A stretch of DNA of 64,000 bases from an uncultured bacterium (GTDB taxonomy: Bacteria > Patescibacteriota > Gracilibacteria > BD1-5 > UBA2023): positions 454 through 64,453 of the forward strand of contig CAIVSN010000116.1 in the NCBI GenBank assembly GCA_903908595.1. The letters are read 5' to 3'. The translations under genes and the position numbers were made by a program. Position 1 is the stretch's first letter. Each line of letters begins with the position of its first letter. The notes beneath the pieces are model-generated. The model was not told where the DNA came from and did no database searches. It was given only the letters and a program-made list of their open reading frames with translations. Below, in pieces: positions 10,609 to 62,498 of the stretch.

Positions 10609-10774
10609 TATACCCAACGGGAATTGGTTTTCGGTATTTTACGGTCATAGATTCGGAACAGGTTTCATTTTTCTTCTTTCGGGAGCTTATCGGCAATAAG
10701 TGACCGAAGAAAAAAATGAAAGATGTCCGAATATGTGACTGGAAAAACCGGGAAACCAATTCCCGTTGGGTATA
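10609..10774. repeat. Family-B element, full-length copy. It is a 166-bp imperfect palindrome with 22-bp termini TATACCCAACGGGAATTGGTTT.
   Basis: The left arm and the reverse complement of the right arm align over the whole length. The centre is catttttcttctttcgg...ccgaagaaaaaaatg. Intergenic. Confidence 0.8.
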
Positions 10775-10871
10775 ATCCGAAGCCGAATTCAAGCACCGCG
10801 GTGAGACGTACTGGGGTACGGTGGACGAGGAACGGAGAAACGGACGAGGAATTCGCGTTTTCCCGGGATCC

Positions 10872-11570
10872 CTAGAATCCCCTGCCGGATCCCTGTCCGA
10901 ACCATGGCATAACCTTGTCCGCGTCGAAGGCATCCGAAGCGACCGCCGTTCCGGAAATCCGGACTTTCGCTCACGTTTCCGTCTTTGCCATTTTCCCGAT
11001 GTGGGCACCGGAAATATCGATTTTCCACAGGTTTCCGTCCAGATCCCGAAGGGAAATGCCCTCGGGACCGACGCCCTGGATCGTACCGGAGAGCCGCCCG
11101 TTCTCGGGCTCGTTCCACGAGGATTCCCGGTACACGATATCGGCCAGGAACGGGATATTTCCGGCGACGTAGGAATGGACCGCCGGTCCCAATCCCGTAC
11201 CCCGGAACGCCACCGCGGCCAGGAGCACCGCGATCCCCCAGACGATCGCGTTCCGGAAAACGTCGTACCGGTACCCGACCGCGGTTTTGCGGAATCCGAA
11301 CAACCCAATAGCCATGAGGCCCGCGAGGAATATCCCCCAGAAAACCGGCGGGAAAAACAGGAGCTGGCCGCCGTTGCCACCTCGCCCGAACCGGAAGAAA
11401 TCCAGGGAGTCGTCGATGAAAAACACCCCGAAAACCGTGGAAAACGCCAAAACGGAAACGATGCCCGCCCACAAAAACCATCGCTGATTGCGGAAATGCG
11501 ATTTCGGGACCGGCACGATGTGCTCGTCGCGGATTTTCGAGAGGATGCTGGTTTTGAGCGGGGTGTTCAT
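10872..11570 (-). CDS. Putative anti-sigma factor / membrane protein cotranscribed with the ECF sigma factor
   Basis: Begins at ATG 11568-11570 (MNTPLKTSILSKIRDEH...), 11 nt after the sigma gene's stop. Has three to four TM helices. Reads through TGA 10971-10973 to TAG 10872-10874. Confidence 0.6.
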
Positions 11571-14203: not shown

Positions 14204-14246
14204 AAAAACTGCCTTTTTAAAAAAACGAGTTGGCGAATAGCGATGT

Positions 14247-14471
14247 TTGGTGCACCCAGCTGGGCTCGCCCGTTGGGCCGCCCGGGGCCGGAGTCCAAAC
14301 CGTTGGACTCCTCGATGCTCCGCATCGCCCCGCGTTCTCGCCGGGGGTTTTGATTATTTTGGTGCACCCAGCTGGGCTCGCCCGTTGGGCCGCCCGGGGC
14401 CGGAGTCCAAACCGTTGGACTCCTCGATGCTCCGCATCGCCCCGCGTTCTCGCCGGGGGTTTTGATTATTT
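14247..14471. repeat. Two tandem 112/113-bp units immediately 3' of tRNA-Arg. Each ends with a 21-nt copy of the tRNA 3' end.
   Basis: ggtgcacccagctgggctcg starts at 14248, 14360 and 14473, and the third occurrence is the tRNA itself. Each unit also contains the hairpins cgatgc-gga-gcatcg and ggagtcc-N8-ggactcc. Confidence 0.9.
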
Positions 14472-14549
14472 TGGTGCACCCAGCTGGGCTCGAACCAGCG
14501 GCCTCAGCCTTCGGAGGGCTGCGCTCTAATCCAACTGAGCTATGGGTGC
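14472..14549 (-). tRNA. tRNA-Arg (anticodon CCG), CCA encoded
   Basis: Minus strand reads GCACCCATAGCTCAGTTGGATTAGAGCGCAGCCCTCCGAAGGCTGAGGCCGCTGGTTCGAGCCCAGCTGGGTGCACCA. The cloverleaf folds, and the anticodon loop is CTCCGAA. Confidence 0.9.
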
Positions 14550-14689
14550 ATGGCGGCATGATATCTAAAACGTCGGATTTTTCAAATTCGATATACGAGG
14601 TTTTTTTCGGATTCCGCGCGGTTACAATTCTTACAGTGCAACTGACAGTCATGGACATTGTTATTGCCACGGAAGCGCAATCGCCTACG

Positions 14690-14811
14690 GAGACTTCTGC
14701 AAAATGATGAAATCCGAAGTCAATTTCGAGCACTGCAGTGAGGCGTACTGGCAAGTACGTCGAACGAGGAGCGGAAAAATTGACAAGGAGTTCGCATTTT
14801 GCAGAAGTCTC
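14690..14811. repeat. Family-A palindromic element, copy 1
   Basis: Termini gagacttctgcaaaatg / cattttgcagaagtctc. Conserved core gatgaaatccgaag...gaggcgtacTGGCAAgtacg...caaggagttcgc. The right end abuts the ATP-grasp gene's stop codon. Confidence 0.85.
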
Positions 14812-15794
14812 TACGGATCGAATATCAGCTTCAGCATTTCCCGTCCGGTATTCACGCCCGTAAGTTCCCGGTCTCACCCGAGGCCCGGGGTGGCGTTCAC
14901 TTCGAGGATTATTCCCCCGGTTTCTTTCAGGGGCTTGGAAAAATCGGTAGACAGGATATCGATTCCGCAGATTCCCAGTCCGAATTTTTCCGCGATTTCG
15001 ATACACGTTTGCCGGGTTTCGGGATGCAGCAATGGGGTAATGTCCCGGGCGGTGCCCCCGGTTCACAGATTCGAGTTTCATCGCAGCCGGAGGCAGGCTC
15101 AATCGGGCAAAACGCTTTCGGGAGAATATCCCTGCTTGCCGATGAAATCCCGGAGTTCCCCGTCGATCGGGATCAGGGAAAGCGGCGCTTCGTATCCGTT
15201 TCCCCGGAGCGAATTGCTTTCGTTTTCGTACCGGATCAGCGCTTCGACGGTCGATTTCCCGTCGCCGGTCACCGCCGGGGGAATCCTTTGTAGCCCGAGC
15301 AATACCTTTCCGAGCACTACCAAAACCCGACATTCGTCTCAGGCGACCTGCTCCTGTACGATCATCCGGGGGTATTCCTCCAAAGACGCCGTCAGTTTTT
15401 CCGTCAATTCCCGAACGTCCCGCAAGCCCATTTTCACGCCATTGCCATGGGCTCCGTCGACCGGCTTGACGATTACGGGAAAAACGAAGTCGGCAAAGTC
15501 CTCAGGCCCGAAGCCTTCGGACAGCCGTTTGGCATCGACGTAGCAAGTGCGGGGAATGGGAAAACCATATTTGGAAAGCATAGCATACGACAATTCCTTA
15601 TCGTCCGCGATATTTTTTCACAAGGCGGAATTCGCTCAAAAATCGGTGCTTTTGAACGTCACGGATTTCCGGGGCGATCGCACGATGAAAAAATTTTTTT
15701 CGGGAATGACCACTTCGACGGTGAGTCCGAGATTTTCCGCTTCTTCTTGGAGAACCTGGGAGGAAATCGACCAATAGGTCATGAAGTCGGTCAT
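14811..15794 (-). CDS. ATP-grasp ligase resembling the cyanophycin-synthetase N-terminal domain / RimK family
   Basis: Same-frame track ORFs 15636-15848, 15339-15593 and 15099-15323 are joined by 7 in-frame TGAs. Ends in TAG 14811-14813. Blocks: PVIVKPVDGAHGNGV, RIPPAVTGDGKSTVEALI, NL[G]TGGTARDIT, GICGIDIL, GGIILEVNATPGL. Confidence 0.75.
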
Positions 15795-17669: not shown

Positions 17670-17677
17670 CCCAGAAA

Positions 17678-17712
17678 TATACCCAATAGGAATTGGTTTC
17701 CTATTGGGTATA
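17678..17712. repeat. Family-B minimal hairpin (15-bp perfect stem, loop ttggt)
   Basis: tatacccaataggaa-ttggt-ttcctattgggtata, located between convergent genes. Confidence 0.85.
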
Positions 17713-17738
17713 AGTCCCGGAAAAAAGCAAAATCCGCG

Positions 17739-21066: not shown

Positions 21067-21094
21067 CTTGCAAACCCCGGCATATATGATACTA
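21067..21094 (+). promoter_or_regulatory. Candidate promoter of the giant gene (TTGCAA-N16-TACTAT with an extended -10 TG)
   Basis: -35 TTGCAA 21067-21072 and -10 TACTAT 21089-21094, with TG at 21086-21087. It lies about 30 nt upstream of ATG 21125. Confidence 0.45.
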
Positions 21095-21124
21095 TGGCCC
21101 CTAGAAAGATATCCGATCCCTTCC

Positions 21125-24100
21125 ATGTCCGTATTTCCCAAACCAAGCAGGCTCAAAAAATGGGTTTCCTCACTCCTCATTTTTACCATGTTCGCGAGCC
21201 AGACGGTGCAATTCCCGTTGCTGGTTCCCAGGATCTTCGCGGAAGGCAGCGACGTTCCGAATTTGGTATCGATCATCGTCAGCGAGTCCGTCTTTACTGG
21301 CAACACGAAGGACAAAATTTCCCAATATTCCAAGGATATCCAGGCTTCGATGACCAATACCCGGGTCGTCATCGTGAACGTGCCCGACAACATCGCCCCG
21401 CACAGCATCGCGGCGCTCAATGAAAAACTCTACTACGAAGGCGACGGCGACGGGATTTCCCGGCTCGTGGGGACCGTCCTGATCGGGAAACTCCCGATTC
21501 CCGTGGTCCACAACGGAAGCAAGAGCTTTCTCAGCATCTATCCGTATACCGACTTCGACGAAAAGGTCTTCATGTTCGACGTGGAGAAGGGCTACTACGA
21601 GGCTGGAAGCGGACCCGTGGAGCATGACAGCCCAGAAATCTGGCACGGGGTCATCCAGCCGAATTCCGGGGATTCCGCCACCGACCGGGCCAAACTCGAA
21701 CAGTACCTCGACAAGACGCACGATTTCTATGCGAAGCAGGGGGTGTTCGCCAACATGAGCCAGACGCCCTACGTTTTCTATCTCGACATCACCCACGACC
21801 AGGAAGCCGCGAGCGCTTCCAATTGGAAGGCGTACAACCTCGGCCTCGAATACCTGGAAGATCTTACCTACAAGCGCTTCAACAAGCACCTGGCCAAAAC
21901 GCTGTACGACAAGTTCCAGGGCATGCAGGATTCCACGGCGGATCTGACTTCCGAGGAAAAAGCCGAGCTCGGGGCCGCTGGGGTGGACATTCCGCCGATG
22001 GCCGATTCCATGGATTTTTCCAGTTCCCCGGACATCCAGACCCGCACCGCCATCACCGAGGTAACGAAGCAGTTCTTCGAGATTTTCAACGAAAAATACC
22101 TCGGGGACATCCTCAAGTTCATCTACAACACGGGAAGATACGGCGACGGGAGGGATACCCGGGCCGATATCGCTCCGGTACTGGTATCCAAGCGCGACGA
22201 ATTCATGAAGCGGGTCATTAAGGACAGCAATACCGCGCTCGAAAACAGCATCGACCAGCTCGTGAAATCCGGCCTCGCGATCGATCTGGCCATTCCGACC
22301 GACGTCAAAATCACCAAAACCGGCTCGGGCGCTGACGCCAACAACCCCGTTCCGCCGATATACCGCAATTACTATTATGGGAAATTGGCGAGTTCCATTA
22401 CCAACGCGAAGGAGTGCTCCATCGTCCGGGGTTCTACGCTCCCGGTCGAAGCGAACCGGGGATACAATATCCTCAACGTCGAGCCGGATTTGCAGAAGCT
22501 TACCCAATATTCGACGCTGTGCTTCCCCGGAGGGCTTCCCGCGACGATGGACTGGTGGGGCGGCAACAGCCCGCTCAACGTGAAGACCGATTCGTTCACG
22601 GCGGCGGATTTGGCGATCTTGCAAAGCGCGACGGGCGGAACGGACCTCTCCGCCTACGAAGGCAAGCTCTCCACCAAGTTCGAGCTCAAGGGCAACGTCT
22701 ATAAGGATTACGTCATCCAGACCTTCGATCTCCTGGGGCAAAGCGAAATCTCGCGTACCGGAGCGCTCCGCGTCAATTCCCCGTCGGATTGTCTCGCCTC
22801 GAACTATATCGCGGATCCGTTCGTCGGAAAATCCGAGGATGGGATGTCATTTTCCCAATTCCAGCATCCGCAGACTACGGGGGGGACGCAGTTCGTCTGC
22901 GTGATGCGGGACAGCAAGGGGGTGCTCGGCCACAAGTTTTTCGTGCAATCCAGCACGACCCTTTTCGCGGACGCCATCGCCGACCGGATCAACCCGCCCC
23001 TCTGTACCGTCGTCAAAGTCAATCTGGTGGGAGGTTTTTCCAAGCAGTTCGGACGGCTGTGCGATGAAGAAGTACCGGTGGCGACCACGGGAAACGGAAC
23101 GGGAGAATCCTCCGGAACGGAAACGGTGACGACCGGGACGACCGAGGAGTACGACTTCAAAAAGATATCTTCCTGGATCGTCCACAAATCCCCCACGGAC
23201 GAAGAATACGGGGCCGCCGTCAAAGGCATGACCACTCCTTCCCTCGCGAGCGACGGGGACCGCTACATCGACTTCATGGGCCCTGCGGGAACCGTCCAAA
23301 AAATCGTCTATCCGAATTTTTTCCGGCTGAACAACCAGTCCTACGAGGCCGCGTTGGCAACGGCAGGAACCTGAGGCAGCACGTTTTTTGGCGATCTCGT
23401 GACCGTCGTGGACCACTCCCTCGCCTCGGCCGGCTGAGGCACCGTGGCCAACACTGGGGCCAGCCTGCTTTCCGGCAATATGCCCGACCTGACCATCGAT
23501 ATGGTCAAAGATTCCATCAAGGCGGTCCTCGATAAGAAAAGCGCCGAAATCAACGCCATTATCAACGCGCAGGATCCGGCGCTCCTCACCGGGGATCAGG
23601 CCGCGATCTACCAGCTCATGAATACCGGCGCCTATCCGGCCGCCAACGTCGATCTCTATACGATGGTCGCGAGCAGCGGGAACATGCTCACGACCCTGGC
23701 GGATACCATCCTCTGGTACAACCGCACCAACGCGACGAGCAAGTATTCGTTCATCCTCGAGAATTACCTCGACCGCGACGGGAACCGGGACTACCCGCTT
23801 TCCGGGCACCATTCCGATTATGAAATGGGATACATCGGCGGACCCGGCGACGCGCAGAACATGTACGTCAAGGTCGACCCAGAATCCAAAGGCACCCTGT
23901 CGAAAGACATTACCGACATCCAGGCCGACTACGGTTCCCTCGTAAACCTGCTGGACGCCGCGAACGTCGCCGAGTACAGTCCCGAAGATTCCCAATTCAA
24001 GTGCGGGCCGCCGGAGGGCGTGGTCATTTGGAAATGGCTTCCTGCCGTCTTCTGCTGGCTCGGGACGATTCTCCCGCCGACCATTTCGGCCGGATCCTGC

Positions 24101-27100
24101 GGACCGCAACTCGGCTCCGATACGGACAAGGGGCAAGACCGCGATTTTTTCACTTCGATTCCGGGCACGGACGGCAAGCTCGCCTGGCAGCAAGACCTCG
24201 ACCATAACGGAATCCTCGACGGATACGAGTGGGTCAAGGACGGGGAAATCAAGCTTGCCGCTTCTCTCAAGCGGATCGGATACCGCTCGGGCGCGGCGCT
24301 GACGGCCGATCTCACGAAGGACGGCCGGATTCTCGCCCACGATTCGTACAACCAGGTATTTTTCGACGTCAAGAAAATCACGCTGCTGAAGGGTCAGAAC
24401 GATCTCGAAGGCAATCCGGTGACTTCCGACAAGATCGTCTACGTCCGGGGAGGAACGGGAGCCGCCGGAAGCATCGAGACGCTCAAAAAATACGTTTTCT
24501 TCACGCCGATCGCGGTCCGGGCGGAGGCGGGAACGGCCACCTACGGCATCCAATCCATCGACCGGGACATCGATATCGATATCGTCGCCACCGTCGCTCC
24601 GAAAGACAAAAACGGAAACGTCGCCTTTTCCAAGGATTCCAATCTCATTACCCTCAAAGTCCGGGACGAAGCGCTCAAAATCGGTACGGAAATCCAGGAA
24701 ACCACCGGAACCGGATCCCGGGTCGATCCGACCTTCAAGGCGGGAGACGCGAGCAAAATCACCTTCAAGTTCACGGTATCCGGGAAAAATCCCGAAACGC
24801 CGACGGCCGCGAAATCGCCCATCAAGATCAAAATCCTCGACGACGTCGACGGAACGGAGCTTACGCCGAGGCCGGCGGATATCGGCAGCGACACGTTCAT
24901 TTATGCCGGAAACCTCCTGAAACAGGCCGGGAATTACCGGTTCGAATTCGTCGACGCGGAAGACCGGTACGGCACCGTCATGGTGAACGTCCTCCCGGGC
25001 GACCCATTCAAGATCGAAGCCGTAGCGGCCTCGAACATGTTCGTGAAAGGCCAGAAAAATATGGTCCTCGTAACCGTGAAGGACCGATTCGACAACTACG
25101 TCAAGGGGGACTTGCTCCAGGTCGCCGGCACCGTCGACGGGGGCGCGTATTTCACGGAAAACCACGATGCCGCCAATTCGAAAAGCACCGTCGAAGGCGT
25201 ATTGAGCTTCGAGATGAGCGCCGACGCCGGAAGCACGGGCAACAACACCCACAAATTGGATTTCAGCACCGTCGACAGCAAAGGCGCGACCATCAAGATG
25301 GCCACGCCGCTGACCGTCCAATCCATCGACTACGCCAAGATCCAGGTAAACGTCGCGAACCGCGGCAGCCTGGTGGCCGGAGGTTCCGGACAGACCGTCA
25401 CGCTCAAGATTACCGACAATCTCGGGCAGGTATTGACCGGGTTCAACGGGGTCGCCAGTCTGGATTTTCCGAAAAATTCCGGATTCTTCAGCACGCCGTT
25501 CGTCCAAATCACGAACGGGACCAATTCCGGCGCCCTGACCTTCACTCCGGGAACGGTCGCGATCCTCGATGCCAAAATCGACGTGCAGGTCCCCGGGATC
25601 GTCGACGTGGAAGGCGGAACGCTGAGCATTCTCCCGAACGTGCCGATGCGCGTGGGACTCCTCTCCGATACCGCCAAATTCGAAGCCAAGGTCGGGAATT
25701 CCGCCGGGATTACCGCGCAACTGTTCGACCGGTACGGCAACATCGCCTACAATCACCCGGCCGGAATGTCGGCGAATTTCACGATTCCGAGCGGTTACGG
25801 CAAGTACGGCAGCATCAGCGGGGGGAACGTGCCATTCGCGAACGGGGAAGCCAAGGTCCAAATCAATTCCAGCAGCAGTCCGGGCACCCTCTATTATATG
25901 GTGGAAGTCGCTCCCGGACTCGAAACGAATACCTTTACCATAGAAGGGGAAAATATCGACACGACCCCTCCGACGAAAACTTCCGTCACGATCAAGGGGT
26001 ATTCCAAAAACGTCGCCTACATCGAGAGCTACTACCTGTGGAACGCGGAAAAACTCGCGAAAACCAACTACAACGTCCTCTCCACCACCCTGCTCGGGGC
26101 CGACTACGGAAACGTCACCGTTCCGAACTATCTCGCGGGCGAACTGATTTTCAATTCCGGCAGCTCGTCGATGGCGGTCACGACGCTCCTGGGCAACGCC
26201 GAAAAGCGGGACGAAATCGTCCAGATGACCCCGGGAGGAAAAATCGTCCTCGACCGGGGCCAGACGGCCGAAGTCCAAATCGGTTCCAACAAGAACCGGA
26301 CGACGCTCGATATTTTCGACCCGTTCAAACGGGAAAATATCGGAAGGTTCTATCTCAATACCAGTCCGGCGACGCCGACGTTCGCATGCGCCACGGACGA
26401 AGCGGACGAAATCGACGCCTGCGACTTCCAGGGCAAGGAATCCTATATGGTCCTCAAGGGATTGGGCGAGGCCGAAGTGACGAAGATCGGCAACCGGCTC
26501 AGCCTCGGTTTCGACGGCATTCCCGTCTTCGAAATTTCTCCGGACGGAACGATCACCAAGTATCCGAACGTCACCGTGGAAGCGGACGGGGAAGAAAGCA
26601 GGAATCTCCTTTCGCTCTCCATCGTCAGCAGCGGCATCAAAATCGGACGGCTCGGCATCAAGTGGGACGCTCCGGAGATTATCGTCAGCTCCCCTTCGAC
26701 CCTCGACGCAGCGCTCGCGAGCCACCCCGGCACCATCGTCTACGAGGGCATTTCTCCCCGATACGGCATCAAACAGGACAACCTGGGGAATACTTCCGCG
26801 GGAGACAAGGGCCTCAAGATTTTCGCCCAGAGCGAAGACGTGGAGACGGACCGGGATCTCATAGGATCCTCCGGCAAGCTGGGATACGAGGAATACGCCA
26901 AAAACAAGGGGATCGGATTCGGCGACGGCAACAACACCCAACTCGAATTCGCGAGCCAATCCACCGTCGGGCAATCCGCCAAATCCTTCGCGACCTACTC
27001 CGAAATCGTCATCGGCGACCCGGTCGCGAGGCTTCCGGAAATCCTCTCTCCCCAGAACTTCGACCGAACCCTGGGAAAAAGGCTCATGAGCAGCGCCGGC

Positions 27101-30100
27101 GGAATCATCGAATCCTATTCGACGATCGACTACAACCGGGACAACATGCAGGACATCGTCGTCTTCTACCAGGACGGCAAGGTCGAGCTCCTGCAAAACT
27201 ACCGGTGAACCTACAAGAGCCTCGGCTATCTCCTCTACGTCTTCGACGCGGGCAAGGAACGCAAGGGCGCGGGGGATTTCAACGGCGACGGCTACGGGGA
27301 CTTGGTCATGGTGGACCAGGACGGCAAACTCATCGTCATCCAAAACCGAAAGGGCAAATTCGTCCGCGTACCCGCAAAAATCATCGACCAAGCCGGTGCC
27401 GAAGCCAAAATCGGCGGATCCGTCATGCAGCTGGAAATATTCGACATGGACAAGGACGGCAAAACCGACATCGTCATTTCCGACGATTCCGGAGAATTGA
27501 ACATCCTCTACGGCGGCGGCACTCCGGACGACGTCGTTTTCACCAAAAAATTGCTCGACGACGGCATCGGAATCAAGCTGGGAACCGGGGAATTCACGAA
27601 CGGCGGGGCGATCCGTTTCGACGGCATCAAGGAAATGACCCCGTTCACCCAGACCGGGTACGTCATGGAAACCGAGGCTTCCAGCGCGGACGCCGACGTC
27701 GAAACACTCAGCCTTCCGGACCAAATCCGGCTCTTGGACAGCAAAATCTACTACCAGCAAACCGTCTACGAGGAAGTTCAGAACCCGGCGGAGGCCCAGA
27801 ATATCCGGCTGCTCAGCGGAGTGGGCGACGATCCGGACAATCCCGGCGTCCCTAACCAGGCGCTCGCCGATGAGATCAGCCAGACGATTCTCGATTTGCA
27901 GAACCAGGCGGCGAGCGGCAGCATCGACACGAGCGAACTCACGAACGCGACGATCGAAAAGCAGCGCTCGTTCCTCCGATCCGAATTCGCGGACGGAAAA
28001 GACATAAAAATCGCAAAAAAATATACCGATAGCAACGGCGGGTTCCTTCAGGCGGGGGATCCGATCCTGGTAACGATCGACGTGACCAATGCCGGAAGCG
28101 CTCCCCTTTCCGGAGTCATCTATCTCGACAGTTACGAAAAATCCGTGTTCCAGCCGGGAGAAAACGATTCGTATGCCATTTACGGCGGGTCGGGCAGCAT
28201 GATGGGAACCGGGGCTTTCGCCGCCTTCACGGGAAGCACGTTCTTCGACGAACTGGCAACGGTCGTGGACCATTCATTGTCCGCGGCCTCGGGCGGCTGA
28301 TCGGCCGGAAGCGCCGCCGCCACGGGATCTGCCCAAGACGGGCTCATTGGCACCGGCAGCCTCGACCAGCTCACCGAAGGGGAATTCGACTTCCAATTCG
28401 GAACGCTGACCATCCCCGTGGGCCAGAAAATCACCATCAAATACCTCCTCAAGGCCAATGCTATCTCCGTCGGGAAATTCCACGTGGGCGTACTCGAAAC
28501 CGATGACATATACGGGGACGTCAGCATGAACGCGAACTCGGTCTGCTGAGACCAGGAATGGCTTTGGAAATCCATCGTACCGACTCCGAGAACGTATTCG
28601 GCAAGAACCCTCAGGGATATCCCGGAGAGCGGCGACGTAGCCGGTACCCAAAAGGGCAAGTTCACCGATTTCAACGGCAACGGATCCCCGGACTATATCG
28701 ACCTCCTTTCCGGAACGGGCGGTAACGATTCCATGGCGTCCTCGCTCTGGGATCCAACGCGACACGGGATCCTGGTTTTCCGCGAAACCTCGACCGATAC
28801 CGGGCTGGACGGAACGAATTTCGAAGTCGGACGGGTCGTCTCCAATTCCGAAACGGGGTACGTCCAACTCAACCCCGTATCCGTAAAGGAAGACGTTCCC
28901 GTTCTCGCGACGCCGGCGCTCGCCAACGGGACGATCAACGGAAACGAACTCGGCGCCGGAAGCGTCAGCAACGTCCTGACCGGAAGCGTTACCAATACGC
29001 TGATCACGACCGCCTGCGGACAACCGGGCACTTCCGTTTCGGATCTCCGGCTCACGGGATACCGGCAGATCTATCATCCGAGCGTCATGTCGGACATTAC
29101 GGGAAACCTCTCGCTCGTCGCCGTCGGAACGTCGAAAACCCTCGACGCTTCTGGAAGCGTCATCGGTACGGGCGACTGCATGATCGACATCAATTCGACG
29201 TCGAATCCGGCATGGGACGGTACCAAGGTCACCGGGCTCGGCTGGAAACTCCTCACCAAGGGAACCTTCCAGCACTTCAGCCTCGGGGGCACGCAATCCA
29301 ACCTCATCGCCGAGTCCGTCGGAATTCCCGACAGCCACGAACCGCTCGGAAGCGATTTGTTCACGTTCGAAAGCGATGGGTCGCTCATCGGGGGAACCGT
29401 CGACATCGGGGGCATGTCGGACGAAAACATCGACAAGGTCAACGGGGCCATCGATACCATCGTCCAGGGCCTCGGGTGCGGATTCGGAGGAGGTAGCTGC
29501 CTCTCCATGCCGATGAACTGGGCCCCTCTCGCCCCGGGTTCCGCTCCGGTCGTCATGGGATTCCCCATCGGGGGACTCAGTCCGTCGACGGGTTTCCCGG
29601 TATTCAGCAGCCTCACGGGCATCCAGACGATGTGCGGCAAATCGCCTTGCTGCATACCGAGCGTTTTTCCCATAAGCCCCCTCGCCTACGTACCCGGACC
29701 GGCTTGCGGATCCCCGAGCGCCGGAGGATACCTGGGCACCTGGGCGCCAACCAACACGTTCCGCTTCTATATCACCCCGACCATCACGGGAGCCGTGGGA
29801 ATCGCCGCGTGTTTCGGAGGTACGGCCATGGTTACCGGACGAATACCGCCACAGGCCGTATCGCCGCTCGTGCCGGGAGGCAACTGCGTCGTCGCGGCCA
29901 AGCCGCTCCTCGGCTGCAAGGACGACGGTTCCGACGGGACGTTCGAGGACTTGTGAAGCACCGATAACGGAACCCTCAATGCCGGATCCTGCAAGAACCA
30001 ATCCGACGAGGAAACCGTTTCCGCCGAAGACCAGGAAAAAATCCGAGCCTTCGTCCGCGGCGACAATACCTTCGTGAGCGATATCGTCAAAAATGCCGCG

Positions 30101-33100
30101 GGCCGCGGAAGCATGATTATTCCGAACGGTCCCCTGCTCTCCATCTGAGGCCGGGGCGGAAGCGGAGCCGGCAGCTTCGAGCTGGCCATCGATCTCAAGA
30201 GCATCAAGAACTTCGATATCGGCATCATCACCAAAATCAGCAACCAGCGGGTTTCCGCGTTCCCGGATTTCATCATGGACTGGGTCAACCGCCAATTGGA
30301 AGAAGTCGCCAACAAACTCACGAGCCTCCCGACGCTGTATATCATCAAGCCGGATTTCCGAGGCGTCATCGACGGCAACTGGAACGGGTTCACGGAGAAG
30401 CTCGGGAAAGCCTACGGTACCGGAAAGAAAAACGGCAGTCCGGTACTCGGCAACGAAAACGCCGGCCGGAGCATTTCCGGCGTCAAGTCAGCCTACGAAT
30501 TCATGTCCCGGCTCCCCCTTATCAAATTCGAGAAAACGACCCTGGACATCTCCTATCCGGACATCGGCCAGGAAGACCTCAACAAGGCCCTCAAGAATCT
30601 CAAGAATACCAAGGCCCAATGGGAGCGGGAGATTTCGAGCAAGAAAGCCCTGTACGCGGGCACGTTGACCGCTACCGGCATGGACGCGAGCATTATCGTC
30701 CGGTCGGAATGACTTATCAGCAGCATCAACCAGAACATCCGAACGATAGAGGAATACAAGAAATTCCCGGAAAAACTCGCGAAGTACCTTACCTGGAAGG
30801 AACGGTATGCGGCGCAATTGCTCTGCAATATCACGGCAATCCAAAACATGCTGGACAGTTTCATTACCAAGAATGCCATCCGCTTCAAGGCCTGGGTCGA
30901 GTTCTTCGAACTGCTCAAGAACATCCTCAAGGGCTGGCAGCTCATCCCGGACCTCTTCTACAAGAACGAGGCCGAATGCGGGGTGTGCCGCAACGAGCGC
31001 TACGACGCGAAGCATTTCATGTTCAAGCTCATCAAGGCCATCATACCGCCGCTTCCGATCATCAAGTTCCCGAAGTGGCCGGACATCATCTTGGACCTCC
31101 ACAACGTTCGGCTCGGCCTCCGCATCGCCATGCCGGAATTCGTGTTCCACCCGACCCCGATCGTCCTTCCGAGATTCCCGAATCTCGCGTTGCCGACGCT
31201 TCCGAAACTGGGCATCGGTTTGCCGAGCATTCCGACGCTTCCGAGCCTGCCGCCGTTACCGGAATTGCCGGATATTCCGTCGCTTCCGCTCATCACCCTT
31301 CCGGAACTCCCGCCGCCGCCGACCATCCCGAAGCTCTTCGGAGCCATCAAATTCACGTTGAACATCCTCAAGATCATCGCGAAGGTCCTCTGTATCATGC
31401 GTTCGAATCCGTTCGTGCCGGAATGGCGCGCCGGAGACCAGATTGCCCAGATTACGGAACGGCAGGGCAAAATGAAGCTCGACTTCCTCAATATCGAATT
31501 CCCGCAGTTCAACGCGAGCTTCGTCGATGCCATCAAGGTGACGACCTACGTGAATTTCGAGTTCCAGATCGACTTCCTCCTCGAAATGGCCAAAGCCACG
31601 TTCGAACCGATCAACGCGTTCACCTCGAACCTCTCGAACATCGTTCCGAACGCGACCAAGGACATCCTTCCGAACAAAGTGGACCTCCGCGGGCTCAATC
31701 CGGGCAACCAGAAAATCCAAATCGGTCCGACCGGAATGGAAGGCAAAAACCCGTTCGTCAAGCAATACGCCCAAACGTTGGCCCAAGCATTCGTTACGAC
31801 GATCAAGCAAGGACAATTCTACGCGAACGAATCGGCGGCCTACGAGGAAATACGGGAGAATCTCGCCGACGAGCTCGCCCATACCCACGCGACCCCGGGA
31901 ACCCCGGGATTCGCCATCCTCGAAGAAATGCGGGAAGGACTCCGGATTCGCGGCGATGCCGAAGCCGAAGCCCTCGCGACCGAACTCCGAAGGGACAACG
32001 ACGAAAAGTTCAACCTCGCGAACGGTTTCGTCAAATCGGAGATGCACGAAATCACGGAACTCCAGGCCCAACTCCACCTCGTGCAAACCGGCAAGAAGGA
32101 CCTCTCGGATATTTTCGGGACCCGGAAAAGCGGGGGAAATGCCGAATTGACGGATTCCGCGAACCCGTACAGCACCGAATCGGAACTTCCAGATTTCACC
32201 AAATTCAACGAACGGGCCTACGTCGCCTATTCCGAACTCCTCGCACCGAAGCCGGACGACGAACTCGTGACCATGGGAAAAAATCTCAAGGACAGCATGC
32301 AAGCCTATTCCGCGGAAGCCGAGAGGAAGTCCGCCGAATACTGAGCCGGAACTGACATTGCCGGCGGAGGCGAACTCGCGAATTACGAATACCGCGGCAT
32401 TTATACCAAGGACAACGGTCGGCAGATCCGGCTCTTCGATTACACCAACGACCTCATGGGAGACGAGAGAGCCGTCCAGGTCGACCGGCTCGGAAACGGG
32501 GCGATAGAATATATCTACCTGAGCGGGGACGGATTGTATCTCAAGACCAAACTGGGGAATTCCGGAACCTCGGCGACGAGCGGAAGCGCTTCCACGGGCG
32601 GAACCGGTTTCTTCGACGAACTCGGCACCGTCGTGGACAATTCCCTGTCCATGGCTACGGGAGGAACTCCGACTGCCAACACCGGAGGTGGGACTTCGGG
32701 CAGCGTCACGACCAGCATTCCCGTCTACCGGCTTTCCGGCATCATCGATCTTCCGAATTCCGAAACGTTGCGGCCGACCGCGCCGAACCGTTTCGTGGAA
32801 AGATTCGTGGCTTCCGGGGAAATCAACTTCTCGTTCCGGCCGGCCGACTTGGTCAACGACACGATTTTTCGAATGGAATTCTACGATTATATCGATCGCT
32901 TCGACCTGCGGATGAGTGGGAAAGACTGGAAGGATATCGCGCCGACCACCCGGGTTTCCTACGTGGATCTCGTCCCGGAATTCACGGGCGAAACCGTGAC
33001 GGACGCTTCCAATACCGGCATCATCCTCCAAAAACCCTATGCGAAATACTTACAGGGAACCGGGAACGGATTCATCAGCGGGGCGGACTACCGCACCCTC

Positions 33101-34630
33101 TGAGCCGGCTCGAAGATTCAGGTTGCCGCGAGCAAATCGATCTATGCTGACGGAGGCGGAGCGAAAATCGCGTACAAAATCGCCGACAGCGCGGCTTCCG
33201 TTACGGGCAGCACGGTGACCATACCGAATTCCGGAGAACTCAAATTCTTGGACAACATGGACATGGAAGTCCTGAACGGAAACGTCATCCTCATTAACGA
33301 GAGTTCGAGCCCCGTACGGCGGCCACAGGATTTTCAGAAACTGAACGGGCTTCCCGTCATCCTGGGTCAGAAAATAGAAATTCCCGCGACGACGGCCCGG
33401 CTCAATATCGAGTATTACAACGGCGCATCGCTCCGCATGGACGGGCCGAGCCTCTATGAAAGCCACGAGCTCGGAGCGAAATCCGACGAATATGACGTGT
33501 CGCTCCGCCAGGATAACGGCTGGTACTACGCCAGGCTCGAAAGCGTTTCGCCGAGCCCCCGGACCAGTACGCGGATCACGCTGCTTTCGCCACAAATGGA
33601 AGCCGACAAGGAAGCTCCGCTCATCGAGGTCGCGGGAGGATTCCGGGCGCCGGTCTATCTCGACCGTGCCATAGACTTACGCGAACAGATTACGGACGTT
33701 TCCGGCATCAGCGACGTGTTTATCGACACGGATCTCGCGGCCGATTCCGACCGGGATGGGCAAATGGACAACGACCGGGATTCCGACGCGGCCGGATCGA
33801 TATTCAGAAAGGGCAGCTCCAATCTCGAATGGATCGTCAAAGCCCAGGATCGACTGTTCGAGAAGAAAATCAAAATCTGGGCCGGGGACGAAAGCGGAAA
33901 TTTGGCAGGAACAGAGACGGATCTCCGCATCTATGCCCCGGTTCCGAATATTTCGACCCAATCGGGAACCACGATTTTCGGAAACCTCGACGAGTCGTTG
34001 GACGGCGAACCGACGGATATCGTCCGGTACCGCAACGGCAAGATTTCCCCTATCGGCAACGCGGCGCTTACCCAGAGCGGCGGGGAATTCCTCAATACCT
34101 TCGGCACGAATACCGGAATAGCCATCAGATGACCGTCGGGCGAATTGGCAAAAATCAACGAAAACACCGGAAAACTCACCCTGAGCGGCAGCGAGAACGA
34201 ATTCGTCGTCCTCCCGGCCAACGCCGACGTCCCGATGCGGATCGAAATCCAGAAGAAATCGGATCATTCCGTCCTCTACTCGCAATCCGTAGCACTGGGA
34301 AGCGCCGGGAAGATAGAACCCGTGTCCAGCCTCGCGGAAGCTCTCGCCAAAGCGAAATGAGGCCTCGGCGTACGTCTCGATGCCGGATGGAATTTCGTCC
34401 GGAACCCGGGCAATAGCCCGTCGCTTCCAGGAGGCATATTCGTCACGGACGCGGACATGAAACCGGTGTTCGGTATCGCCAAGGATGGCAACGTATACTT
34501 CCTGAAATCCTCTGGACTCAGCCTGAAATACGGAACCGAACAGGACTACTTCGTCATCGAAGTCCGCGACGCGGACCATCTCGTCGGAACCCTCTATTAC
34601 GTACTCGATGCCGAATATGTCATCAAATAG
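21125..34630 (+). CDS. Giant secreted surface protein (~4,500 aa) with FG-GAP/VCBS-like, Ig-like and DUF11/CARDB-like segments and a Pro-rich region
   Basis: Nine frame-2 track ORFs (21068-23374, 23444-27208, 27302-28300, 28733-29956, 30275-30712, 30818-32344, 32456-33103, 33215-34132, 34145-34360) are separated only by 12 in-frame TGAs. The first TAA/TAG in frame is TAG 34628-34630. Signal-like MSVFPKPSRLKKWVSSLLIFTMFASQ. FG-GAP-like GDFNGDGYGDLVMVDQDGKL and DMDKDGKTDIVISDDSGEL. Pro-rich LPSLPPLPELPDIPSLP. Confidence 0.85.
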
Positions 34631-35243
34631 CCTCCTTATCGCTTCGGTGACCGATCCGGGACACTGGTACCTTTTCGACGACCGGGACGTTTGTACGGCC
34701 CACGAAACCCATTCCATCGCCGGCAAGGAATTCGACCGCTTCCTCGATACTGCGGTCGGATTCCTGAAGGGCCGAAATCTCGGATTCGCGGATATTTCGA
34801 CCATTTACCTAGTCACCGGACCGGCTTCTTTCACGGGGGGTCGCATCATGACGCTCACGCTCGGTTCCCTCGCGCTCGCCTACCCGAATATCCGGCTCGT
34901 CGGAATTACCCTCTTCGAATACTGGGCGATGGCGGGAAACGCCTACCCGATGGCCATCGAGGCGAACCGCGAAGAATTGGCCATCCAGCGGGGGCCGGAA
35001 TCGGAAATCGAGCTCGTCTCCAAAGCGGAAGCCGAGATCATTCCCTTCCGCACCTGGTATTCCCGCATATGAAAGTTGCCGAAGTGGGAAAATATGATAC
35101 AATTCGACGAACGAATATCTTCTTTACCCAACGCCCTGAAACGGAAACCCCCTACTCGGACCCTGAATCCGCTGTATATCAAAAAGCCGAACATTACCAT
35201 CTCACCGACTTCCCATGATACCAGTAGACCTTCACATCAGTAA
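34608..35243 (+). CDS. tsaB: TsaB/YeaZ-like protein (tRNA t6A biosynthesis)
   Basis: Track ORF 34608-35072 reads through TGA 35070-35072 to TAA 35241-35243 (211 aa). The block IYLVTGPASFTGGRIMTLTLGSLA resembles the TsaB GPGSFTGLRIG motif. It overlaps the end of the giant gene. Confidence 0.6.
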
Positions 35244-36506: not shown

Positions 36507-36552
36507 TCCCCTTGTAATATATTTTTTCGGCTATATATTGAAAATCGTCAAT

Positions 36553-37116
36553 ATGCCTATGATGGAAAGATACCTATCGGAGATGCCGAGCAGGAGCGAA
36601 GTCCGGCAGTCGGAACAATCCATTCTGGAAGCCCGAACGTTCGAACGCCTGCTGGAATCCATGCCTGAAAAAAAGAGCAAAGCCGTGACCCGGCTGGACC
36701 GTACCGATTTGTTCAAAAACGACATCGCGTACCTCCGTTTCGTCAAGGAAAAAAAAGAAAACGGCAAGACGATTCAACGGACGGACATCAAGGTTTCCCT
36801 CTTCGTTCGGGGGGTCCACGGACCCCTCCTCTTCTGTACGGCGAGCTTGGAAAACCCTTCGCGTGAGGGATCCCACAATACCGGAAACTGCATCATGCGG
36901 CTCCCCATTATCGGCAACCGCGACGGGATACTCCTGGGGCGGAGGGCGTTTGACAATCTCGCCAACGAAGTGGGATACGGCCTCACGGAAGAGGAGCAAG
37001 AGATGCTGTCGGAAAAATTCCTCGACGACATCCAATGGATACCCGACTACCACGAGCGGTACCGGAACCTTTGAAAAGCGGTCCGGGGATTCGTCAGCGA
37101 CATTTTCGCAAAATAA
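36553..37116 (+). CDS. Hypothetical protein (187 aa)
   Basis: Taken from track ORF 36538-37074, starting at ATG 36553. Reads through TGA 37072-37074 to TAA 37114-37116. Confidence 0.5.
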
Positions 37117-37204: not shown

Positions 37205-37438
37205 ATGGCCACAATTACCATTGTGAAAAAAGGTTCCGGGATCCGCGTCCGTGCAATCACGACCGGTGGGTACGGCAGCCAAGAAGGTTACACCGACAGC
37301 AAAGGCATGGTACGATTCAACGACAGTGCCAATAGGACTCAGATTCAGGTCTGGAGTCCGGGCGGCTCGCGTTGGGTCAATACCGGCGACGTGCTTTCCT
37401 CATTACGGGGAGATCACGACTGCTACATGCCCTTCTGA
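37205..37438 (+). CDS. Small hypothetical protein (77 aa) with standard-code hallmarks. It ends in TGA.
   Basis: AGGAG 37194-37198 lies 6 nt before ATG 37205. The ORF closes with TGA 37436-37438, and an intrinsic terminator follows 8 nt later. Under code 25 the frame would stay open to TAA 37841-37843. Confidence 0.45.
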   Translation: MATITIVKKGSGIRVRAITTGGYGSQEGYTDSKGMVRFNDSANRTQIQVWSPGGSRWVNTGDVLSSLRGDHDCYMPF

Positions 37439-37445
37439 AGGATTA

Positions 37446-37474
37446 CGGCCCCCGTTATGCGGGGGCCGGTTTTT
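37446..37474 (+). terminator. Intrinsic terminator
   Basis: cggcccccg-ttatg-cgggggccg, followed by gttttt. Confidence 0.75.
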
Positions 37475-37480
37475 GTGTGG

Positions 37481-37598
37481 AACCCCGGCAAAACGCGAAC
37501 TCCTTGTCAAATTCTGCTTCCTCGCTCAACGTACCTATCGGTACGCCTCGCTACGGTACTCGAATTTGGCTTCGGATTTCATCGTTTTGACGGGGTTC
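37481..37598. repeat. Family-A palindromic element, copy 2 (inverted orientation)
   Basis: Termini gaaccccggcaaaacg / cgttttgacggggttc. The central hairpin is cgtacC-GATA-Ggtacg on the reverse strand. Confidence 0.85.
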
Positions 37599-37628
37599 TG
37601 GGGTTTTTGCAAAATATTTCTGTCAGAC

Positions 37629-39903: not shown

Positions 39904-40028
39904 CGGGAATCTCGTTAAAAACGCGAACTCCTTGTCAAATTCTCCGCTCCTCGTTCAACGTACTATCGTACGCCTCACTACGGTGCTCAAATTTGACTTC
40001 GGATTTCATCGTTTTAACGGGATTCCCG
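39904..40028. repeat. Family-A palindromic element, copy 3 (inverted orientation), abutting a family-B half-site (39895-39910)
   Basis: Termini cgggaatctcgttaaaaacg / cgttttaacgggattcccg. The central hairpin is cgtac-GATA-gtacg. It overlaps the stop codon of the methylase gene. Confidence 0.85.
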
Positions 40029-43466: not shown

Positions 43467-43514
43467 AGGAAAAAAATAAAAAACATCTTTCCCATATCCG
43501 AACGAATGCCTCTT

Positions 43515-43633
43515 GAGACCCTGGAAAAATGATGAAATTCGAAGTCAATTTCGAGTACCGAAGGGAGGCGTACGAGAGTACGCCCGCAAGGAACGGAAAA
43601 ATTGACGAGAAGTTCGCATTTTTCCAGGGTCTC
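43515..43633. repeat. Family-A palindromic element, copy 4, in the pnp leader
   Basis: Perfect 17-nt termini gagaccctggaaaaatg / catttttccagggtctc. The central hairpin is cgtac-GAGA-gtacg. Confidence 0.85.
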
Positions 43634-43723
43634 TCTCGGCTTGCGACGACGGCACGAACCGCCGACGCAAGCAAAGAGGCTACGCTGGGTTTGGGAGATA
43701 GCCAGAGTATACGGGAAAAACCG

Positions 43724-46654: not shown

Positions 46655-46778
46655 ATGGCGGGATTGGATTTGGTATTTTATAATTGAATAATTTGCAAAG
46701 TCAAAAGATAGCGCCGAGGGATTTTTTGTTTTGACATTCTTTCCGAAGAACTGGATGGGTGTAAAGATAATCCGGGAG

Positions 46779-46823
46779 TATACCTAACCGAATCTATGGC
46801 CATAAAATACCGAAAACCAAATT
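46779..46823. repeat. Family-B arm fragment (inverted)
   Basis: The reverse complement, aatttggttttcggtattttatggccatagattcggttaggtata, aligns to the left arm of the 10609-10774 copy. Confidence 0.65.
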
Positions 46824-46825
46824 CG

Positions 46826-46991
46826 CTTAGTCTCTAAGCAAAAATAAGTTGCAACTTTGCCGCGTATGCATGAGGTATCAGGCAAGGCGACTCTTACGCA
46901 GTGGAGCGGGCTCCACAAGTATGAGGCAACGATGGCTGATATCTTATGCATACGATGGGAAAGTGTAAGTTATTTTTGCTTAGAGACTTAG
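46826..46991. ncRNA. Rod-like structured element of ~165 nt. It is either a candidate ncRNA or a palindromic mobile element.
   Basis: A 22-bp closing stem (cttagtctctaagcaaaaataa / ttatttttgcttagagacttag), a 19-bp inner stem with two G-U pairs (cgtatgcatgaggtatcag / ctgatatcttatgcatacg), and an apical hairpin gtggag-cgg-ctccac. Confidence 0.4.
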
Positions 46992-47134
46992 GTATATTTT
47001 TGGAATTTGGGGAAAGTGACAATGCAACCATGGGAATGACACGCTCAAAATCGAATTTGACAATCGCGATACGGTCCATATATTGCGGACGGCTCAACCA
47101 AAATCAGTTGGAGGCCGCAAAATAGGAGTATACC

Positions 47135-47485
47135 GTGGAAATACAAATATACCTGATTGGCTTCGATCTCTGGCTTCTCGTCCTCACGACCCTGCTCGGA
47201 ATGACGGTAAGCACGATCGGATATGTGAAACGTTTGCCGAACGGGAAACGGTTCGATATCGTCAAAGCATGGAAAACGTCAATCATTGCCACAATGTTGC
47301 TATTGTGGGGATTGATCATCGCGCTCATGGTCTGGTTTTCTTACGAACCGGAATCGTTCGGCAAGTTTTTCTACTATCCCATCCAACTCTTCTCTGCCGG
47401 AATCGTCGGCGAAACGTTGGCGCTCGGGTTGTCCTGGATTCTCAAAGGGCATCGCAATTCCCTTCTGAATCTCGGGAAAACCTGA
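47135..47485 (+). CDS. Small membrane protein (116 aa) with standard-code hallmarks. It ends in TGA.
   Basis: AGGAG 47124-47128 lies 6 nt before GTG 47135. It has about four hydrophobic helices. The ORF closes with TGA 47483-47485, and an intrinsic terminator follows at 47520. Under code 25 the frame stays open to TAA 48992-48994. Confidence 0.5.
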   Translation: MEIQIYLIGFDLWLLVLTTLLGMTVSTIGYVKRLPNGKRFDIVKAWKTSIIATMLLLWGLIIALMVWFSYEPESFGKFFYYPIQLFSAGIVGETLALGLSWILKGHRNSLLNLGKT

Positions 47486-47519
47486 AATCTTCCCCGGGAA
47501 ACCCCCGTGGAAACCCCCA

Positions 47520-47551
47520 ATCCCGGAACGGCGACGTTCCGGGATTTTTCT
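47520..47551 (+). terminator. Intrinsic terminator
   Basis: aatcccggaacg-gcga-cgttccgggatt, followed by ttt. Confidence 0.75.
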
Positions 47552-47624
47552 GAATCGGGAATCCCGGGATTCCATTTTTTGAAAATCCCCGTACAATGCC
47601 TGCCAATCCTAATCATAACCCATT

Positions 47625-48437
47625 ATGAACACGCCACCATTTTCCCTCGCGCTCGGCGGATGAGCCGCCCGGGGACTCGCCCATGTCGGAATCATACGGT
47701 ATCTCGAAGAACACGGGCTCCGCGCGGAAGAAGTCTCCGGAACGAGCATGGGATCCATCATCGCGGCGCTCTACGCCTATTGAAAGACGTCCGAAGAAAT
47801 GCGGAATATCTGTGCCGATATCAAGTTCGTCAAGCTGATCGATCTCGATCTCAAGAAATGACTCCTCAAGGGGAACAAGATCGAAAAGCTTCTCGAATCC
47901 ATATTCTGAAACGCGAAGATCGAGGATTTGAAAATGCCCTTGAAAATCGTTTCCGCCAATATCGACACCGGAGAAAAACGCGTTTTCGAAACAGGTCCGG
48001 TCGTCGACGCCATCCGTTCTTCCATCAGCATTCCCGGAATCATCATGCCGAACGAACTCGGCCTCGAACGGCTGGTTGACGGGGGCATCGTCAACAATCT
48101 CCCCGTGGAAATCCTCAGGGGCAAAAACGTCATCGCCGTTTCGGTCTTACGGGACGTCTCCCGTCCAATCGACATGAAACTCAAAGTCCTCGGGTTCGAG
48201 ATGAACCAATCCATTTTCTGAATCGGGTATCAGATCTTGCAGAAAACCATCGACATCATGGTAAACCAGAACGAAAAAAGGTCGTTGGAATCGGAAAAGC
48301 ATATCGTCCTGCTCGAACCGAAATTCCCGGGAATCGATTATTACGAATTCCAGAAGTACGACGAAATCATCGGCATCGGATACGCTACGGCCATGAACGC
48401 CGGGCTGATTGGCCGATTATCCGAAAAATTCGAATAA
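47625..48437 (+). CDS. Patatin-like phospholipase
   Basis: ATG 47625. Frame-0 track ORFs 47928-48221 and 48237-48437 are joined with upstream sequence across 5 TGAs. Motifs: LALGG[TGA]AARG (GGGxRG), GTSMGS (GxSxG), DGGIVNNLP (DGG). Ends in TAA. Confidence 0.85.
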
Positions 48438-48449
48438 TCCAAATCGAAC

Positions 48450-49007
48450 ATGCCACTGGAAACCATCGTCGCGTTCGATCGATACTGCATCCTTTCGGTA
48501 TCCGCGTTCCAAAGCCCCTGGCTCGACCCCGGCATGATTGCCCTTACCAAAGTCGGGGATATGGGAGCGGTATGGCTGATCGGTACCGCCACCCTGCTCC
48601 TCTGGCAGAAATACCGGTACGAAGGAGCCGTTATTTTTTCCGGACTGGCATTGAATACGGTCCTCGGGGAATGAATATTGAAGCACGTTTTTCAAAGGGA
48701 TCGCCCATTTCTCGATCTGCACGAAGTCGCGCTCAAGATTCCGGCTCCGATTACTTCGTCGTTTCCGTCGGGACACACGAGTGCTTCGTGGTGTTTTGCC
48801 CTGCTGTTCACGGTATTTTTTTGGAAACGTTCGAGATCCGCCGTCATCCTCGTCTGGACGTTGGCAATCGGCATCGCGTTTTCCAGGTTTTACCTCCAGG
48901 TACACTATCCGAGCGATATTCTGTGAGGAATGGCTATCGGTACGGCCAGTTCGATTGCGGTAATCTACATTTTTGGAAAAATCGACGCCAGTAAAAAACT
49001 CCCCTAA
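48450..49007 (+). CDS. PAP2 superfamily phosphatase (BcrC/undecaprenyl-diphosphatase-like)
   Basis: Frame-0 track ORFs 48450-48674 and 48678-48926 are joined by TGA 48672 and 48924. Motifs: KHVFQRDRP, PSGHT, SRFYLQVHYPSDIL[TGA]G. Ends in TAA 49005-49007. Confidence 0.8.
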
Positions 49008-52439: not shown

Positions 52440-52543
52440 TTTATCTGGAGGGTATTATCGAGTTACGATCGCGATGAACGTTCATAATGAACATTTCAAT
52501 AAAAAAGTCAACTAATATTGGCCTCATGCGTTCGTTGCGATTT

Positions 52544-52578
52544 TATACCCAACGGGAATTGGTTTCCTGTTGGGTATA
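52544..52578. repeat. Family-B minimal hairpin
   Basis: tatacccaacgggaa-ttggt-ttcctgttgggtata. Contains one G-T pair and covaries with the 17678 copy. Confidence 0.85.
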
Positions 52579-52638
52579 TTTGAAAAAGCGTCGGAACGCA
52601 TCGGCAAAATGCCCGGTCGGGATTTTTCCGATATCCCC

Positions 52639-62268: not shown

Positions 62269-62351
62269 GTCTTTCGGTATTTTTTTCCAAAACCCGAAAA
62301 AATCCCCAAGATTCCCCTTTTGAGGAATGTTCATTTTGACTATAATCCTCC

Positions 62352-62471
62352 AAAATCCTGCAAAACGATGAAATCCGAAGCCTATTTCGAGCACCGTAGC
62401 GAGGCGTACTGGCAAGTACGCCGAACGAGGAGCGCAGAAATTGGCAAGGAGTTCGCGTTTTACAGAAATTT
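62352..62471. repeat. Family-A palindromic element, copy 5
   Basis: Termini aaaatcctgcaaaacg / cgttttacagaaattt. The central hairpin is cgtacT-GGCA-Agtacg. It lies just upstream of proS. Confidence 0.85.
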
Positions 62472-62498
62472 CCACAGCGTAATTTAAACCCCTATCCC

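Follow-up and report, generated by a model that had tools for sequence, protein, structure and literature searches.

In ciliates such as Condylostoma, the same codon can serve as stop or as sense depending on its position, through eukaryotic eRF1 and poly(A)-proximal context. Nothing comparable to these position-dependent stops is known from bacteria. In stop-loss (non-stop) alleles, a single base change removes a functional stop codon, and translation is expected to continue into the 3' UTR. Non-stop messages also underlie ArfA and BrfA, both of which are made from non-stop mRNA with a terminator or a cleavage site inside the ORF (PMC6881298, PMC8012679). Genes with TGA ends and no internal TGA are known from the code-11-compatible phages of Gracilibacteria and Absconditabacteria, which infect code-25 hosts and back their TGA codons up with a nearby TAA or TAG (PMC10746230). 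Among BD1-5/Gracilibacteria genomes, prfB, encoding release factor 2, has been detected in none (PMC6851277), and proteomics of a BD1-5 bacterium found that UGA codons yield glycine, without any peptide specific to a stop at UGA (PMC4032931).

Within a 64,000-nucleotide stretch of DNA from an uncultured BD1-5 bacterium (the window), ORF 47135-47485 encodes a 116-residue protein and closes with TGA, a glycine codon in the code of its own genome. The features of the locus, together with a second, unrelated TGA-ended gene in the window, are as follows.

37205 to 37438, + strand: unrelated 77-aa gene with a TGA end at 37436-37438 (homologues, dN/dS, terminator scan)
46770 to 47012, no strand assigned: long imperfect palindrome (rod-like intergenic element), outside the gene unit (fold z = -7.9)
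47057 to 47084, + strand: promoter, with -35 TTGACA at 47057-47062, a 16-nt spacer and -10 TATATT at 47079-47084 (consensus match 11/12)
47091 to 47116, + strand: 5'-UTR stem-loop (GGCTCAACC...GGAGGCC), where the transcript is predicted to begin
47124 to 47128, + strand: Shine-Dalgarno sequence AGGAG (read directly; kept in four of five aligned loci)
47135 to 47482, + strand: coding sequence with a GTG start, for a membrane protein of 116 aa predicted to have three helices (codon score, homologues)
47483 to 47485, + strand: TGA where homologues have TAA, glycine in the code of the genome (DNA of homologues)
47486 to 47551, + strand: putative read-through tail (G-NLPRETPVETPNPGTATFRDF...) to the 3' end of the terminated transcript (code 25 translation)
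47519 to 47549, + strand: intrinsic terminator with a 12-bp GC-rich stem, GCGA loop and T-run (-21.6 kcal/mol)
47555 to 47580, + strand: second hairpin (GGAATCCCGGGATTCC) followed by T6 (terminator scan)
47625 to 48437, + strand: patatin-like phospholipase gene with its own -10 TACAAT at 47592-47597 (motif G-G-TGA-x-R-G; syntenic in locus L017)

The layout that a sequence-only reading had given for this ORF holds. Translation would start with GTG at 47135, 6 nt after AGGAG, and pass through 116 sense codons, with no TGA among them, before reaching TGA at 47483-47485. A hairpin at 47519-47546, which begins 33 nt past the TGA in a terminator scan, is followed by a T-run to 47549, and the patatin gene starts at 47625 in another frame. 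With UGA read as sense, the frame stays open for 619 codons, until TAA at 48992-48994. The 502 codons without TAA or TAG that separate the TGA from this stop are unremarkable, since the window is GC-rich and about 10% of its off-frame positions have runs at least that long. The hairpin after the ORF has the GC-rich stem, the T-run and the compensatory changes of a Rho-independent terminator, while the second hairpin, possibly a back-up terminator, is not conserved in L017, the closest relative. The codon score of the tail between the TGA and position 47551 is about zero and turns clearly negative further downstream. The central observation of the sequence-only reading, that a real small gene ends in TGA without a backup stop inside a UGA=Gly genome, is borne out.

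Comparison of aligned genes confirms that this genome reads UGA as glycine. The nucleophile-elbow motif of the patatin is G-G-[TGA 47661-63]-A-R-G, and in orthologous methyltransferase and PNPase genes the TGA codons of the window align with GGN, and its GGN codons with TGA. A self-trained code-25 gene set contains 73 in-frame TGA codons, about 5.7% of its glycine codons, and 22 hand-picked, higher-scoring code-25 models end in TAA or TAG, an ending that the model itself requires. In gene 36538-37116, a UGA 13 codons before the end aligns with GGN in orthologues that also share the tail beyond it. An A follows UGA in 20 of the 52 sense cases in the window, where no +4 nucleotide context was found that sets the terminal TGA apart, and no +1 or -1 frame stop usable by frameshift was seen by eye near the end of ORF 47135-47485. 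Rfam, at its gathering threshold, places only tRNA-Arg, tRNA-Lys and tRNA-Leu in the 64-kb window. Beside tRNA-Arg(CCG) (14472-14549) lies a perfect tandem duplication at 14246-14469, with two 100% identical copies of a 112-nt unit.

Two further candidates for TGA-ended ORFs, 34608-35072 and 8303-8893, were rejected as ordinary genes that continue through sense TGA. The first is part of gene 34608-35243, TsaB-like by eye, which runs through a sense TGA at 35070-35072 and overlaps the start of the next gene (35215) by about 29 nt; under code 11 it would resemble another TGA-terminated ORF. Elsewhere in the window, 21068-34630 is a giant protein gene, a single open frame of 4520 codons that includes 12 in-frame TGA and has internal repeats spaced by about 4.4-4.9 kb.

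When the long ORFs of the window are used to train a codon model, ORF 47135-47485 scores a log-odds of +0.24 per codon in its own frame, within the range of the window's own genes, and below zero in each of the five alternative frames. A word-indexed search of proteins with this one sequence returned the same protein alone, in three near-identical contigs. An exhaustive phmmer search of 1.84 billion representatives found four homologues with 30-46% identity, and a profile search added a fifth, for an overall range of 29-46%. With six clusters in 5.8 billion proteins, the family is rare, and its distribution is patchy. Across a five-sequence alignment, 11 columns are invariant (FEPxSF..., Q, G..W...G), and both ends are conserved, the N-terminus as M-E/Q-I-x-I/T and the C-terminus as WILKGHxxSLMNLxK(T/A). 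The window protein retains 11 of the 11 residues that are identical across the four other aligned members, and its identity to the outgroup is 0.38, as against 0.42 for L017. As the codon score is specific to the frame and the homologues share conserved ends, ORF 47135-47485 can be taken as a genuine, native gene for a small membrane protein.

Searches of Pfam and NCBIfam gave no match for the 116-aa protein, PHROGs nothing significant (best E = 0.007), and Foldseek against the PDB no fold relative (best E = 3). Scans of JGI metagenomes with alignments of both the 116-aa family and the 77-aa family found no match, and a GTDB genome scan with the window's patatin protein returned only distant proteobacterial and spirochaete patatins. 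In the databases searched, ORF 47135-47485 has no relative closer than 46% identity by which a mutation could be dated. The protein had been proposed to span the membrane with about four helices; hydropathy and an AlphaFold model point to three long hydrophobic helices instead (AF2 model, pLDDT 78; residues 12-33, 42-70 and 80-104). On the evidence of these comparisons, this is a rare, previously unannotated protein family, and all members whose genomes can be checked for their code occur in UGA=Gly bacteria.

Conservation extends beyond the protein. Across five family loci, the -35 element TTTGAC is invariant and the -10 element is conserved. The 5'-UTR stem-loop differs by only one base between the window and L017 (36-62), despite 46% protein identity, and the consensus hairpin from five loci has nine pairs, three of them with compensatory changes; it may act as a stabilising or regulatory leader. 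At the position of the ribosome-binding site, AGGAG or GGAG is present in four of five aligned loci and AAGGAA in L014. Each of the six family loci has a hairpin with a T-run after the ORF; 4 of its 11 pairs show double compensatory changes, and in L014, L017, L018 and L020 it lies 28-33 nt downstream of the TAA. Promoter, 5' hairpin, ribosome-binding site, ORF and terminator are conserved as a self-contained unit in five lineages.

For comparison of the stop codons, the DNA of every homologue locus was fetched. In L014, L017, L018 and L020, the homologous codon is TAA; L017, for instance, ends AGG AAA ACC TAA, as against GGG AAA ACC TGA in the window. The sixth locus, L019 (32-358), has a TGA eight codons early, straight after an A7 run, and one extra A restores ...KKPLM-TAG, which fits the PLM motif of the family. 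The contig is short and of low coverage, the early TGA probably reflects a frameshift or an indel of the assembly, and the locus is uninformative. L017 is syntenic as well as closest in sequence: its next gene is a patatin that is 75-77% identical to the window patatin and that likewise encodes this glycine of the GGGxRG motif as TGA. The RecA of L014 reads IRMKI[TGA]VMFGNPETTTGG, and the recR gene of L018 has TGA at two positions that, judged by the RecR consensus, are probably conserved glycine sites. The homologue genomes in which the code can be checked thus also appear to read UGA as glycine.

The window's own TGA recurs in three further assemblies (L001, L002 and L021), making four assemblies of three samples in all, which excludes an assembly error. 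Given TAA at the homologous codon in four homologues, the TGA is a derived point change: by parsimony, the ancestral stop of the family is TAA, and the window carries an A-to-G transition. A second A-to-G change is seen at the start codon, GTG in the window and ATG in L014, L017, L018 and L020. The GC content of the window is 54%, compared to 34-47.5% in the contigs of the relatives, and the direction of both changes fits a GC-enriched lineage. Read with UGA as glycine, the gene is predicted to be stop-less, with no usable stop before its own transcription terminator.

We lean towards a native, vertically inherited gene that has undergone a TAA-to-TGA stop-loss, one that is recent and either tolerated or mildly harmful. 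An A-to-G transition in this GC-enriched lineage turned TAA into TGA, which the genome reads as glycine. We infer that ribosomes would insert glycine at 47483-47485 and run on for about 21 codons, past the hairpin of the terminator, until the terminated transcript ends; the glycine read-through product would have the predicted tryptic junction peptide TGNLPR, then ETPVETPNPGTATFR. On transcripts that escape termination, ribosomes would run on out of frame over the patatin gene. The ribosomes would be freed by rescue, either through trans-translation, with tagging and degradation, or through tag-free hydrolysis, and the cell would have a tail-extended protein or far less of the protein. On the stop-loss reading, the TGA would be neither a designed feature nor a sign of foreign origin. 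It counts against this reading that the ORF shows no decay, with all 11 conserved residues, an intact promoter, ribosome-binding site and terminator, and good codon usage, so the change would be either very recent or harmless.

The gene resembles other stop-loss alleles in the single base change and in the expected translation into the 3' UTR. It differs in that the new codon is TGA, a standard stop that is sense in this host, so that the loss is visible only through the genome's code, and in that the next TAA or TAG lies 502 codons on, past the terminator. As with ArfA and BrfA (PMC6881298, PMC8012679), a terminator lies inside the open code-25 frame ahead of any stop, which would make for a non-stop transcript whose product requires ribosome rescue. 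However, the stop-less layout is not conserved in this family, as L014, L017, L018 and L020 have TAA upstream of the terminator. Furthermore, ArfA and BrfA are small soluble proteins with a basic C-terminal tail that recruits RF2, whereas the protein here has three hydrophobic helices and no basic tail, and the partner RF2 is reported absent from these bacteria. We therefore rejected filing the gene with ArfA and BrfA, since its layout arose by mutation and is not conserved. The likeness to genes of the code-11-compatible phages (PMC10746230) extends to the TGA end, the lack of internal TGA and the code-25 setting; unlike those, ORF 47135-47485 has no backup stop, lies on the chromosome, shows synteny with a relative and finds no match among viral contigs.

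Upstream of the promoter, the sequence-only reading had described a rod-like element and a family-B fragment (46779-46991). The stretch 46779-46991 is part of one long imperfect palindrome at about 46770-47012. Fragments of its arms recur at 2412-2511 and 10609-10774, both matching by BLAST, and a similar terminal motif at 17675-17713 and 52543-52581 has no BLAST match to the element. Long imperfect intergenic palindromes of this kind form a family, with termini like TATACCCAAC..GGAATTGGTTT. At the Rfam gathering threshold, the palindromes and the leader hairpins match no known RNA family. None of the homologue loci fetched contains the palindromic element.

A second intergenic repeat family, of about 120-130 nt, is found at 14683-14814, 43508-43634 and 62344-62475 on the + strand and at 37490-37606 and 39918-40025 on the - strand, with a partial copy at 10828-10873. 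Its ends are inverted repeats by eye (GGAGACTTCTGCAAAATG...CATTTTGCAGAAGTCTCT), and it contains a ATGAAATCCGAAG..TTCGAG core and a TTGACA-like box. The repeat also occurs downstream of the homologue of the 77-aa gene in L023, and L027 has a sequence that resembles it less closely; related genomes thus seem to share this repeat.

The earlier reading had regarded ORF 47135-47485 and the gene at 37205-37438 as two copies of one pattern. A related anomaly does exist at the latter position, but the two proteins are unrelated and their histories differ, as the terminal TGA is lineage-specific in ORF 47135-47485 and conserved in all five lineages of the 77-aa gene. Homologues of the 77-aa protein (loci L022-L027) are 74-81% identical, come from five diverged UGA=Gly lineages and all end in TGA at the same codon, and their loci are syntenic, adjoining methyltransferase and PNPase genes. 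With dN/dS of 0.11-0.29 at dS of 0.8-2.2, the alignments clearly indicate a real gene under purifying selection. Its terminator, at about 37446-37476 (-22.9 kcal/mol), starts 7 nt after the TGA, and across the lineages this distance is 7-10 nt. The proline codon before the TGA varies synonymously (CCC, CCA, CCT or CCG), and of 25 fourfold sites only 4 are the same in all five lineages. In the neighbouring methyltransferase and PNPase genes, sense TGA is freely exchanged with GGN: of about 16 alignment columns with sense TGA, not one is conserved between the window and these genomes. The code-25 extensions beyond the terminal TGA, of 34 to 218 codons, are not conserved either, and run antisense into a convergent gene. 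As an ordinary glycine codon or a junk codon would not stay TGA, the terminal TGA of the 77-aa gene is, judging from these alignments, under constraint, as a stop codon would be. This suggests that, in this clade, selection can maintain a UGA directly ahead of a terminator as a workable end of a gene. The only two coding-like TGA-ended ORFs in the window, 37205-37438 and 47135-47485, precede its two strongest terminators (-22.9 and -21.6 kcal/mol). The invariant terminal TGA of the 77-aa gene is the most interesting lead in the window.

These observations bear unequally on the other ways in which the TGA of ORF 47135-47485 could be explained. The sequence-only reading had considered the ORF to be written in the standard code and to be possible cargo of a mobile or palindromic element; a foreign gene brought in by a phage or mobile element, with TGA as a true stop in the donor, would be in keeping with the TGA end, the lack of internal TGA and the adjoining palindrome. 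We consider such an origin highly improbable. At a TGA codon frequency of 0.47%, about 0.5 internal TGA are expected in 116 codons and none by chance about 58% of the time, so their absence is uninformative. Moreover, the codon usage is native, the homologues that can be checked end in TAA in UGA=Gly genomes, the closest relative is syntenic with the patatin, and neither the viral contig collection (which holds no relative of the 77-aa gene either) nor PHROGs, at significance, offers a phage relative. A comparison of flanks among relatives, which the sequence-only reading had itself proposed, found the ORF and, in L017, the patatin synteny present and the palindrome absent, which argues against mobile cargo. 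Native usage, recoded relatives that end in TAA, synteny and the lack of phage relatives thus leave both the standard-code and the cargo claims unsupported. There is just as little to recommend a chance, untranslated intergenic ORF: its small size and the absence of a Pfam or NCBIfam family and of a solved structural relative would suit such an ORF, but it has protein homologues with conserved motifs and ends in several lineages, its ribosome-binding site and start position are conserved, and its codon score is frame-specific.

It is conceivable, if improbable, that the gene was already dispensable and that the TGA is the first visible lesion of a pseudogene no longer under selection. The family does evolve quickly, at 46% identity to L017 compared to 75-77% for the adjacent patatin, it is rare and patchy, and in L019, too, the gene does not end properly where the others do. 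However, no other lesion accompanies the TGA, codon usage is still gene-like, the 5' hairpin is intact along with the other signals of the transcription unit, and the identities of the window copy and L017 to the outgroup are about equal. More weight, though still well short of favour, goes to a normal gene in a clade where a UGA placed a short way ahead of an intrinsic terminator is a productive end of translation, making TAA-to-TGA effectively synonymous. Such an end might come about by context-dependent termination, or ribosomes might stall at the hairpin or 3' end and then be released without a tag. Only on this reading is there a likeness to Condylostoma, where a codon that is sense inside genes terminates next to the 3' end of the mRNA. 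The constraint on the 77-aa gene argues for this possibility, through purifying selection, a TGA that is invariant in five lineages beside a varying proline codon, the unconserved sense TGA in neighbouring genes and the unconserved extensions, as do the placement of both ORFs before the window's strongest terminators and the lack of decay in ORF 47135-47485. The invariant TGA in the 77-aa gene also counts against plain stop-loss in ORF 47135-47485. Conversely, no UGA release factor is known in such bacteria (PMC6851277), proteomics of a BD1-5 bacterium found no UGA-stop peptides (PMC4032931), and gene 36538-37116 has a sense UGA near its end. The spacing from TGA to hairpin is 33 nt in ORF 47135-47485, as opposed to 7-10 nt in the 77-aa gene, and the support comes from one other gene family, in five lineages. 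Finally, with TAA in four of five homologues and the fifth ambiguous, TGA is not the selected state for the family of ORF 47135-47485. The broader proposition, that in this GC-rich UGA=Gly lineage a UGA just upstream of a terminator is a selected end of translation without release factor 2, by context-dependent termination or rescue-mediated release, and so both glycine and effectively stop, is a tentative one that we think unlikely; were it true, the 77-aa gene would be a conserved example and the change in ORF 47135-47485 a neutral swap.

Stop-loss remains the reading we prefer for ORF 47135-47485. Taken alone, it would be an ordinary event in an unusual coding context: a single transition that would be silent in most bacteria, from stop to stop, leaves a gene without its stop codon when the organism is UGA=Gly. 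Run with code 25, a gene caller would fuse such an ORF or miss it, while one run with code 11 would be "correct" for the wrong reason. The comparisons also define a new family of small membrane proteins with an unusually well conserved unit of promoter, leader and terminator. It gains wider interest when set beside 37205-37438, whose terminal TGA is conserved under selection. Together, the two genes offer a testable case of how translation is completed in bacteria without RF2 when a gene has UGA at its end and a terminator next to it, whether through ribosome rescue, a tolerated tail or true context-dependent termination.
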